Source: a virus
Lineage: Duplodnaviria > Heunggongvirae > Uroviricota > Caudoviricetes
DNA length: 50,477 nt
IMG/VR virus record: IMGVR_UViG_2645727867_000002
Strand: one strand, 5' to 3'
A program made the position numbers. Positions 45,001 through 48,000 of this stretch are shown piece by piece. Each line of letters opens with the position of its first letter. Positions within the stretch are counted from its first letter, which is position 1.

Positions 45001-48000
45001 ACTGAACAGCGTCATCCCGCCGGCAGTGCAGCACCTCACGGTGGAGGTGAGTGCCTCAGACGGCCAGTATCTGGCGCTGGCGAAATGGGACACGCCGCGG
45101 GTGGTGAAGGGCGTGCGCTTCAGTCTGCGCCTGACCAGTGGCAGTGGTGAGAACAGCCGCCTGGTGACCAGCGCCATCACGGCGGATACGGAGTACCGTT
45201 TCAGTGGCCTGCCGCTCGGGGAATACACCCTGACGGTCAGGGCGATAAACAGCTATGGCCAGCAGGGCGAACCTGCCACCACCACATTCCGGATTAATGC
45301 ACCGGCGGCACCGGCCAGCATTGAACTGACGCCGGGCTATTTTCAGATAACGGTGGTCCCGCATCCTGCGGTGTATGACCCGACGGTACAGTATGAATTC
45401 TGGTTCTCAGAAAAACGCATCACGGACACGGCACAGGTGGAAACCTCAGCCCGTTATCTGGGTACCGACAGCCAGTGGAGCGTCTCCGGCCCGCACATTA
45501 AGCCGGGGAAGGATTTCTGGTTTTATGTGCGCAGCGTCAACCTGGTGGGGAAATCTGCGTTTGTGGAGGCCAGCGGGCAGGCCAGCAATGATGGTGAAGG
45601 GTATCTGGAAATTTTCCGTGGGCTGATAGATGAGGCGCTGCTGGGGAAGGCACTGAAAGAGCGTATTGATGCGTCAGCCCTGCGTACTGAGGTCACGCAA
45701 CTGGAAGAAGACATCCGCCAGCGGCTGGAGACGGATGTTGCGGAAGTGACCCGAAAAATCGGGGAGGCGGAAAACAGCCTCACGCAGCTGGTTGCGAAAA
45801 AGAATGAGGACCAGACGCTGGCCATCGCGCAGGTGAGTCAGCAGGTGGACCGGGTGAGCAGTGAAATCACACAGACAGTCAGCCAGAGCACGGAGGAAAA
45901 CGCCAGGCAGATAGCGCAGGTCCGCCAGTACGTGGATGACAAAGGGAGTGAAATCACCTCGACCACGGATAAAAAGCTGGAAGACCAGAGCGCGACCATA
46001 CAGCAGATACAGCAGGTCCAGTCAGACACGAATGATGAGCTGGCAGCGCTGTACATGCTGAAGGTGCAGAAAACGAAAAACGGCATTCCGTATGTTGCCG
46101 GTATTGGTGCGGGGATTGAGGATGCTGATGGCCAGACGCTGAGCAATATTCTGCTGCAGGCGGACCGTATCGCGATGATTACCCCGGAGAACGGCAACAC
46201 CACGCCGCTGTTTGTGGCACAGGGGAACCAGCTGTTCATGAACGACGTGTTCCTGAAGCGACTGTTTGCGGTGAGTATCACGTCATCCGGCAATCCCCCG
46301 ACGTTTTCCCTGACGCCGGAGGGCAGGCTGACGGCCCGCAATGCGGATATCAGCGGACATATCAGTGCGAACTCGGGCACGCTCAATAATGTCGTGATAG
46401 CGGAGAACTGTACGATAAATGGCACGCTGAAGGCGGAGAACATTATTGGTGATCTTGTGAAATGTGCAGGGGTGGCTTTTCCGGTGGATGGTAGTCACCT
46501 TGCGAACGGTACACGAACGCTGACGGTGTATGACGATCACAGCTTTGACCGGCAGATTATAATCCCGCCGATAATTTATGTCGGGTCAAAACAGGAATCC
46601 CGCACCAGTAATGACATCTGGACAGAGTGCTTCCTGCATGTTGATCAGAACGGACGCCGGATTTATTCAGGCAGGTCAGTGACAGAGCCGGGAGTTTTCA
46701 GCGGGATCATCGATATGCCTGCTGGCGGTGGTCATATCACCCTGAGTTTTACCGTGAGCTCACGGCGTCAGAATGACAGTTGGGGCAGTTCACGAATCAG
46801 TAACCTTCAGGCGATAGTGGTGAAGAAAAACAGCGCGGGGATCAGTATCCGCTGAACATCGCGCCCCGGGATTGCCGGAAGGAGACAAAAACCGTACAGT
46901 ATGCGCGGGTGCCTTTGGCTGATGGCCGGAGGGAACACCTGAAGGCCGGATGTGAAAAGGCCCCGGACAAAACATTCATGTTTAACCCGAGGCCTGACGT
47001 TCTTCCTTCAGCAAGAAGAAGGTTAGCGCCTCTCCGTAAAAGGAGCAAGCGTTATGTCGCAAAAACCGTTAAAAACCACCGTGATTTGTATCACGGTAGT
47101 GCTCATTATCTGGATCACCCACAGTTCACTGTGCGAGTTCCGGTTCCGGATAGCGGGCGCGGAGATTGCGGCGTTCTTACAGTGTAAGCGGTAAGAAACC
47201 GTGGCGGGGGAGTGTACCTTCCCCGCCGACCGGTTGCTGAGGGTGATCAGCCGGATGGCACCTTTTTAACATCAATAAATCACAAATTTTACCGCAGGCC
47301 GGGAAACCGGTCCTGCGGTTTTTTTATGGAGGAAATCCATGGCAGTCAGAATATCGGGTGTGCTGAAGGACGGGGCCGGTAAGCCGGTACCGGGATGCAC
47401 GATAGAGCTGAAAGCGCGCCGCACAACGGAGACGGTGATTGTCACCACGGTGACGTATGGTCAGCCGGGGGAAACCGGCAGTTACAGTATGGATGTTGAG
47501 CCGGGGTTGTACCGGGTGACGCTGAACACGGAAGGGTACGCGCCGTCATATGTGGGTGACATTCTGGTGGAGGCGGACTCTGCACCGGGAACGCTGAATA
47601 AATTTCTGATGGACCTGGAGGACGCACAGTATTACCCGAAAGCCCTTGCAGAGCTGGAAGCGGTGGCCGTGGAAATCCTGAAACGTGCGGAAGCGTCAGC
47701 GGCGAGTGCAGAGGAAGCGAAGAAACGGGCAGAGAATGCGCGGGGACCGAAGGGGGATAAGGGAGACACGGGGCCACAGGGTATTCCCGGGCCAAAAGGC
47801 GATACCGGCGAGCGGGGGCCAAAGGGTGAGCGTGGTGAGAGGGGGCCGCAGGGGCTTCAGGGCGCAAAGGGCGAGGCCGGTGTTGCCGGGCCGCGTGGTG
47901 AAACCGGCGGGCAGGGGCCACGGGGGGAACGGGGTGAGCAGGGGCCTGTCGGACCGAAAGGTGATAAAGGAGACCCGGGAGGCCCGGCAGGACCCCGGGG

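Follow-up and report, generated by a model that had tools for sequence, protein, structure and literature searches.

The 483-bp spacer between the J tail-tip gene (43169-46855, 1228 aa) and the side tail fibre gene (47339-49051) of the virus record IMGVR_UViG_2645727867_000002 raises the question of whether it holds a complete hok/sok toxin-antitoxin module and, if so, how the toxin is controlled. In the paradigm for such loci, mok is obligatory for the translation of hok (PMC4147584), and no convincing mok is found in the spacer. The record, which is 50,477 nucleotides long and is called the window here, is a Stx2-converting lambdoid prophage. Positions 46872-47325 are a hok/sok-family type I toxin-antitoxin module, a moron between J and the side tail fibre gene. 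An explanation of the whole module that includes its Sok unit, its fold-back and a control that dispenses with mok is probably correct. Coordinates are those of the window unless another record is named.

The toxin gene lies on the plus strand, from the ATG at 47054 to the TAA at 47192-47194. Its product, MSQKPLKTTVICITVVLIIWITHSSLCEFRFRIAGAEIAAFLQCKR, is 46 aa long and has a single transmembrane helix. The Shine-Dalgarno (SD) sequence AAGGAG is at 47041-47046, 7 nt before the ATG. The peptide matches Pfam family PF01848 (HOK_GEF) with 43.5 bits, where the cutoff is 22 (E value 2.4e-11, profile positions 8-42 of 42), and PHROG 251, "MokW-like host killing", with an E value of 3.4e-21. No PADLOC model matched it. 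Identity to HokW, HokC and HokB is 35-37%. The residues kept in more than 80% of Hok peptides are M1, C16, T18, L30, C31, E32 and E41 in the numbering of the logo of a Hok catalogue (bioRxiv 10.1101/2025.08.07.668861); in an alignment read by eye all of them are present in the window peptide, as M1, C12, T14, L26, C27, E28 and E37. The original prediction had placed a 46-aa Hok/Gef-like open reading frame (ORF) with a good SD sequence at this position and had proposed an alignment with hok family members as a check. Position, SD sequence and family match are borne out, and the alignment, with its level of identity and the conserved residues kept, supports membership. Judged by its sequence, the ORF at 47054-47194 encodes a Hok/Gef family peptide.

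As a gene finding the locus offers nothing new, for it is already annotated, catalogued and tested for toxicity. At least 20 complete Shiga-toxin-producing E. coli genomes (O104:H21, O91:H21, O113:H21 and others) contain the 483-bp interval at 100% identity. RefSeq names the identical ORF, WP_000078853.1, "Hok/Gef family protein" and places it between gpJ and the tail fibre gene. The word "unannotated" in the original prediction was thus right for its own ORF track but not for RefSeq. Matches are present in 142 of 5426 complete E. coli genomes, always on the chromosome and at a median of two places per genome. The locus is also found, at 95% identity and under the label "hypothetical", in phage 1720a-02 (KF030445), an O174:H21 phage. 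The identical coding sequence is entry 79_1563, plasmid LRP163, of the Hok catalogue, in which all but three (19_179, 60_1482 and 69_1540) of 45 tested constructs were toxic (bioRxiv 10.1101/2025.08.07.668861). Since 79_1563 is not one of these three, the identical coding sequence is counted among the toxic homologs. The catalogue is a preprint, and its toxicity tests of 79_1563 used overexpression from a foreign SD sequence; it also reports that hok is enriched in prophages, and Mok and Sok lay outside the analysis of that survey (bioRxiv 10.1101/2025.08.07.668861).

What remains modestly interesting is the absence of mok from a whole branch of the family, together with scores that lie below the Rfam gathering threshold throughout. 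The branch comprises loci whose peptides begin with MSQK. Relatives were taken from GTDB genomes and from IMG/VR (305 hits), and 59 unique loci were extracted. Counts for mok refer to 58 unique relatives, covariation counts to 52 unique mRNA regions in one alignment, Sok counts to 34 unique leader variants, accessibility values to 48 loci and the promoter alignment to 22 diverse relatives.

In canonical loci an ATG 8 nt after a GAGG motif of the Sok target opens an ORF across the hok ATG; mokW and mokC are in frame with hok, and mokB is in the -1 frame. The test for mok covered all three frames, with 24 canonical loci as a positive control. An SD-linked ORF across the hok ATG was found in none of the 58 relatives, even when non-canonical starts were allowed, versus 21 of the 24 controls. 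No ORF with a start codon crosses the hok ATG in any frame in 43 of the relatives, and in 57 there is no ATG, GTG or TTG 3-13 nt after the GAGG. The window itself carries an overlapping ORF of 92 codons (46909-47187, plus strand), which ends 7 nt before the hok stop and had been described as mok-like. It does not have the family-typical start after GAGG, and its frame is open in only 2 of the 58 relatives. In loci L040 and L043, which encode the identical Hok peptide, an in-frame stop closes it at -43. The in-frame ATG at 46978 lies in the loop of the Sok-target (sokT) hairpin, is clade-specific and is not preceded by an SD sequence; other clades have ACG, CTG or TTG in its place. On this comparative evidence the 92-codon ORF is an allele-specific accident, and the locus has no mok; the ORF is not counted as a gene here. 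A search for short conserved ORFs in the leader that stop close to the hok SD sequence found none, and a full-text literature search for hok loci without mok returned nothing relevant. A stop-like triplet (TGA, TAA or TAG) recurs directly after GAGGCC in nearly all relatives and is at 46995-46997 in the window. The recurrence would be explained by pairing of CUGAC, CUAAC or CUAGC with GUUAG in the truncated fold described below, and not by a reading frame.

The hok mRNA is predicted to begin with GGGUGCC at 46907, a position set by MAFFT alignment with hokW, hokC and hokB. Its putative promoter (46872-46900, plus strand), placed by sequence and homology, has the -35 element TTGCCG at 46872-46877, a 17-nt spacer and the -10 element TACAGT at 46895-46900. 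TTGCC(G/C) and TAnAnT recur at a fixed distance from GGGTGCC in the majority of 22 aligned, diverse relatives; the -35 element is unrecognisable in the L071/L072 group. The predicted core of the mRNA (46907-47267, plus strand) is about 360 nt long and ends with the fold-back inhibition (fbi) element and a U-run. Transcripts may extend to a Rho-independent terminator (47291-47325, plus strand), which has its hairpin at 47291-47319 and its T-run at 47319-47325 and stands directly before the SD sequence and ATG (47339) of the tail fibre gene. A terminator scan found the inner stem of this hairpin, at 47300-47315, and the T-run.

The Rfam family RF01794 (sok) matches the leader at 46907-47065 with 50.3 bits and an E value of 5.6e-10, and the start of the match coincides with the mRNA start at 46907. 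The covariance scan that the original prediction had suggested therefore gave a divided answer: the E value is significant, and the bit score is under the gathering score of 59. This is typical of the MSQK subfamily, in which scores range from 36 to 53 bits and are always below 59, compared with 110-118 bits in canonical loci. Standard Rfam annotation consequently misses the whole branch. The RF01794 model, named as the sok antitoxin, matches the sense strand of the hok leader (at L004 402-554, L005 467-618 and L006 703-877, and at 46907-47065 in the window), and not the strand of the annotated sokC, sokB and sokW.

Folding of the region 46907-47330 gives a minimum free energy (MFE) of -192.9 kcal/mol (z = -8.4 versus shuffles). 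Over the 52 loci, 86.3% of the cells of the full-length fold are paired; controls with a slid partner give 36-47%. All of its elements are on the plus strand. The 5' end of the mRNA, an element (46907-46923) like the translation activator element (tac) of known hok mRNAs, pairs in the MFE fold with the fbi-like 3' element AUCAGCCGGAUGGCACCU at 47246-47263. This helix is 91.7% paired, and five of its pairs have changed on both sides (column pairs include GC 28/CG 23, GC 44/AU 8 and CG 24/GC 22). The box UGCUGAGGG at 47235-47243 pairs with CCUUCAGCA at 47005-47013 and is the equivalent of the pairing between upstream and downstream complementary boxes (ucb/dcb); it is 84.4% paired, with three pairs changed on both sides. 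A GC-rich hairpin after the hok stop, GGCGGGGGA...TCCCCGCC at 47203-47227, is 95% paired and has five covarying pairs. Because the tac-fbi, dcb-like and post-stop helices pair and covary over the 52 loci, a hok-type fold-back architecture is evidently present and under selection. The two structured hairpins noted in the original prediction are both real, but they are the post-stop hairpin and the terminator; the fold-back element lies between them, at 47246-47263.

Three further hairpins occupy the leader and the start of hok. The sokT-like hairpin GGCCCCGG...CCGAGGCC (46959-46994) is the complement of the predicted Sok terminator hairpin. It includes the GAGG at 46989-46992 that is the mok SD sequence of canonical loci. 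Compensatory changes in it are visible by eye, from GGCC/GGCC to GGTC/GACC in L072 and to AGCC/GGCT in L071. The hairpin UUCUUC-CUUCAGCAA-GAAGAA (46999-47021) is variable, a hot spot of variation within the window-type clade, and five of its six pairs have changed on both sides. The 5' tail of Sok is predicted to bind its loop and 5' arm, the same two parts that the dcb-like box engages in the full-length fold. The translation-initiation hairpin of hok (47024-47054) joins 47024-47035 to 47042-47054, so that an anti-SD sequence, CUCC at 47032-47035, pairs with GGAG of the SD sequence at 47042-47045. The outer stem extends to the A of the AUG, and the helix is 93.2% paired over the 52 loci.

The minus strand is predicted to encode a Sok-like RNA of about 60 nt, with its 5' end near 47013 and its 3' end near 46953. 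The original prediction had held that this RNA could not be delimited by eye; its ends are placed here by homology with the annotated sokW, sokC and sokB. In its predicted fold (-21.6 kcal/mol) the first 18 nt are a single-stranded tail, and UUUUC comes after a hairpin of 38 nt. The predicted promoter (47020-47048, minus strand) has the -35 element TTGCTC from 47048 to 47043, a 17-nt spacer and the -10 element TAACCT from 47025 to 47020. All 34 leader variants keep the promoter geometry, the tail, the hairpin (-17 to -28 kcal/mol) and a short U-tract. The -10 element is TAACCT in 33 of them and TATCCT in one, and the stems are compensated clade by clade. In work on sokW the sense-strand sequence TAGGTTA was replaced with primer YO-421, evidently for a promoter-less mutant that releases HokW toxicity (PMC8621323), and the Sok -10 element of the window is identical to the sequence targeted by that primer. 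The MAFFT alignment puts the sokT regions of window-type and 933W-type loci one base out of register, which depresses the pair counts there and accounts for a poor RNAalifold consensus on the Sok strand; the Sok candidates were therefore folded singly.

These elements suggest how the module could work without mok. A weak promoter would yield the mRNA of about 360 nt from GGGUGCC at 46907. The full-length form would be inert, with its 5' end clamped by fbi, its Sok target tied to 47235-47243 and the hok SD sequence and AUG held in the anti-SD hairpin. If the R1 and hokW paradigms apply, slow trimming of the 3' end would allow refolding with the tac stem, and the trimmed mRNA would then meet one of two fates: capture by the unstable Sok followed by RNase III cleavage or, once Sok is exhausted, translation into a Hok peptide that depolarises the inner membrane. 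This biochemistry of 3' processing, unstable Sok and RNase III is established for R1 and partly for hokW (PMC4147584, PMC8621323). The step proposed for the present branch is that refolding would itself open the ribosome-binding site of hok, as GAGGC (46989-46993) pairs with GCCUC (47029-47033) and displaces the anti-SD sequence from the SD. Binding of Sok would sequester GAGGC, the anti-SD sequence would re-close the hok site, and cleavage by RNase III would come next.

The predicted folds are consistent with such a switch. When the last 30 nt or so are removed, the 5' end takes AAGGCCCC at 46957-46964 as its partner in a tac stem. The segment GAGGCCUGAC (46989-46998) then pairs with GUUAG-GCCUC (47023-47033), the SD hairpin is reduced to 3 bp, and the hairpin at 46999-47021 exposes CUUCAGCAA, a loop with complementarity to the 5' end of Sok. 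Over the 52 loci the tac stem of this truncated fold is 88.9% paired and the GAGGC/GCCUC helix 86%. In partition-function calculations on 48 loci the unpaired probability of the region from the SD sequence to the AUG is 0.29 in the full-length mRNA, 0.41 in the truncated mRNA and 0.29 in the truncated mRNA with the Sok target masked, whereas it is flat in canonical mok-bearing loci (0.38/0.38/0.38). GAGGC, GCCUC and the anti-SD sequence hardly vary, even though the GAGG serves no ORF. In locus L072, GGCC, GAGGC and GCGCC have jointly become GGTC, GAGAC and GCGTC (by eye), which is the pattern expected of a segment with two alternative partners. Extension of the proposal to the branch is tentative, at somewhat less than an even chance: the loci with MSQK...AAFLQCK peptides (clusters 72 and 79), mostly in tail-fibre moron slots, may be naturally mok-less and gated by an RNA switch, with the hypervariable Sok 5' tail and its target hairpin making each co-resident copy specific. 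In this branch GAGGC would alternate between the sokT stem and the anti-SD region, and this alternation would replace translational coupling to a leader peptide.

Other explanations of the locus differ in what they ask of its RNA. One is that the module is canonical, and that the frame at 46909-47187, or its ATG at 46978, is a functional mok that is blocked by Sok and needed for the translation of hok. The frame is indeed open to within 7 nt of the hok stop, the ATG falls within the region covered by the predicted Sok, and mok is obligatory in the paradigm (PMC4147584). This reading is nevertheless highly improbable, since 57 of the 58 relatives have no start 3-13 nt past the GAGG, the SD-linked crossing ORF occurs in none of them (43 have no crossing ORF in any frame) but in 21 of 24 canonical loci, the frame is interrupted at -43 in loci with the identical Hok peptide, and the ATG at 46978, besides being without an SD sequence, gives way to ACG, CTG or TTG in other clades. 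It is hardly more credible, and if anything less so, that the locus is a decaying relic, an inactive hitch-hiker without regulated expression like several chromosomal hok loci of K-12. The many truncated Hok fragments of the window cluster in databases, and promoters that are weak matches to consensus, would fit such a history. A relic would not be expected to keep an intact ORF that hardly varies within the window-type clade, with variation confined to RNA loops and the Sok tail, or helices preserved by compensatory changes; the 305 IMG/VR hits and the toxicity of the expressed peptide (bioRxiv 10.1101/2025.08.07.668861) also speak against it.

A more serious rival, though a less likely one than the switch, accepts the loss of mok and dispenses with the switch: Sok would act only through RNase III cleavage and decay of the hok mRNA, and the hok site would simply become weakly and constitutively accessible after the loss of fbi pairing. 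It agrees with the position of the predicted Sok, which ends about 28 nt upstream of the SD sequence and so is clear of the hok SD and AUG, and with the small size of the predicted accessibility change. Full antitoxin activity of sokW needs RNase III (PMC8621323), and antitoxins that act by degradation only, such as RatA/txpA, are known (PMC4147584). It does not account for an initiation region that is state-dependent in nearly all 48 subfamily loci and flat in mok-bearing ones, for the near invariance of GAGGC, GCCUC and the anti-SD sequence where no ORF requires GAGG, or for the coupled three-way change in L072.

Some results weigh against the preferred reading of a switch-gated hok/sok module without mok. 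The NCBIfam HokA and Hok models match the window peptide at E values of about 1e-9, below their equivalog/subfamily cutoffs. A sigma-70 scan of 46700-47450 listed no promoter; the hok promoter agrees with consensus at 8 of 12 positions and the sok promoter at 6 of 12, so both proposals rest on homology and not on consensus strength. When RF01794 is applied at its gathering score, no hok/sok element appears in the window, and the match described above is returned only in E-value mode. The U-tract of Sok is only 2-4 U long across the leader variants. The shift in accessibility (0.29 to 0.41) is modest and comes from phylogenetically related sequences, and for canonical loci the same calculation gives a change from 0.41 to 0.29 at the mok site, which is known to open, so it lends the switch weak support. 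Transcript ends, processing, Sok-hok pairing and dependence on RNase III are predictions for the window locus and its cluster.

The likeness to characterised systems is close in architecture. R1 hok/mok/sok, hokB/sokB and hokC(gef)/sokC share with the window locus a small single-pass membrane toxin with the residues C..T...LCE...E, and a long structured mRNA that starts with GGGUGC and has tac/fbi pairing of its ends and a ucb/dcb-equivalent pairing. In all of them a Sok of 55-65 nt, which combines a single-stranded 5' tail with a terminator hairpin, is encoded antisense in cis at the corresponding position of the leader, and its promoter overlaps the SD region of hok. They differ in having mok at the GAGG site and in peptides of 49-52 aa, compared with 46 aa, an MSQK... 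N-terminus and an ...AAFLQCK C-terminus in the window. Their RF01794 scores are far higher, as given above, and their predicted hok-site accessibility is uncoupled from the state of the leader, to which it is coupled in the window subfamily.

The hokW-mokW-sokW locus of phage 933W and Sakai Sp5 (PMC8621323) is likewise a hok/sok locus borne by a Stx2 phage, and its Sok -10 heptamer, AGGTTAG on the sense strand, is identical. HokW is a paralogue of 51 aa with 37% identity to the window peptide, it has an in-frame mokW, and its locus, at 58460-58734 of 933W (AF125520), is outside the tail-fibre region. The published hokW experiments concern that locus and none concerns a window-type locus (PMC8621323). 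That the best match of the window in 933W might be this characterised hokW was ruled out, because a primer sequence from the hokW paper is absent both from the window and from the matching locus, which lies next to lom; 933W therefore has two different hok loci. In the GenBank record of 933W hokW, mokW and sokW are annotated and the lom-adjacent locus (L007 1501-1875) is not.

The lom-adjacent hok of 933W-like Stx phages (AF125520 45490-45864; cluster 72, entry 72_1589) is the closest relative outside the window clade; 377 nt of it align at 77.7% identity, and the peptides are 63% identical. It has a 46-aa peptide of the MSQK type, a leader without mok and the same RNA architecture, and it is also a moron of the tail region. 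Its peptide, 72_1589, is among the toxic constructs of the catalogue as well (bioRxiv 10.1101/2025.08.07.668861). It differs in lying behind a terminator after lom, whereas the window locus directly follows J, and in having no downstream terminator, the next gene being immediate. Outside the hok family, another type I system (PMC4147584) is comparable in that its antitoxin binds far upstream of the ribosome-binding site of the toxin and only the processed mRNA is translatable and sensitive to the antitoxin. That system is unrelated in sequence and relies on 5' processing, a ribosome standby site and a divergent antitoxin encoded in trans; in the window locus the corresponding parts would be 3' trimming and the anti-SD switch.

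Of 35 window-type loci, 34 occupy the interval from the end of J to the side tail fibre gene stf, and lom precedes 38 loci of the 933W type. The MSQK family is an occupant of classic moron slots in the tail region. The flanks of Salmonella, E. albertii and other members are heterogeneous. Two MSQK-type hok genes (L008 and L009) are on contigs assigned to a Planococcaceae metagenome-assembled genome and to a Vagococcus sp., and their peptides are nearly identical to that of Salmonella; contamination or mis-binning seems a better explanation than true presence in Firmicutes.

A comparison of 20 unique close relatives shows hardly any change in the hok coding region; the differences are nearly all confined to 46946-46965, 46996-47020 and 47206-47225. 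The first patch covers the 3' tail region of Sok, the second its 5' tail and the hairpin that this targets, and the third the loop of the hairpin after the hok stop. The pattern may reflect selection for copy-specific recognition by Sok, or recombination. Variation in the Sok tail and its target fits copy-specific recognition in genomes with several copies. Locus L071 (1860-3222; IMGVR_UViG_2757320580_000004) contains three tandem MSQK-type hok loci about 500 bp apart, with ATGs at 2008, 2502 and 3001. Each of the three has its own leader and Sok-like unit, and their Sok tails differ.

The role favoured for the module is assistance of lysis upon prophage induction, by analogy with hokW. After induction sokW RNA vanishes and HokW appears, and deletion of that locus halves phage release (PMC8621323). 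No terminator separates J from the hok promoter of the window, so late read-through transcription would enter the locus and converge with the sok promoter. The module would be silent in the lysogen, and on induction this convergent read-through from J would deplete Sok. A point on the other side is that the lysis-helper role is carried over from a paralogue at another place in another phage; maintenance of the prophage and exclusion of other phages are alternative roles. In Shiga-toxin-producing E. coli negative for the locus of enterocyte effacement, Stx2 prophages hold the module directly in the late operon, a placement that could affect the timing of lysis, and hence the release of Shiga toxin, should the module behave like hokW. 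The mok-less branch also provides a natural test of how Sok controls a toxin without a leader ORF.

Elsewhere in the window, stx2A (17281-18240, 319 aa) and stx2B (18252-18521, 89 aa) have three tRNA genes (16939-17187) as their 5' neighbours. The C-terminus of the Stx2 A subunit, ...SQSLYTTGE, resembles that of the activatable Stx2d type. A match to the STnc100 small RNA lies 3' of the stx2 genes, at 18596-18808. The Rfam matches isrK (8251-8327, 67 bits) and C4 antisense RNA (8352-8439, 83.6 bits) adjoin one another, and both are above their gathering scores. The side tail fibre protein encoded at 47339-49051 has a prophage tail-fibre N-terminal domain and a gp53-like C-terminal domain, as well as collagen-like G-X-Y repeats that span about 200 residues. 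The collagen-like repeats of its gene give rise to long spurious ORFs on both strands.

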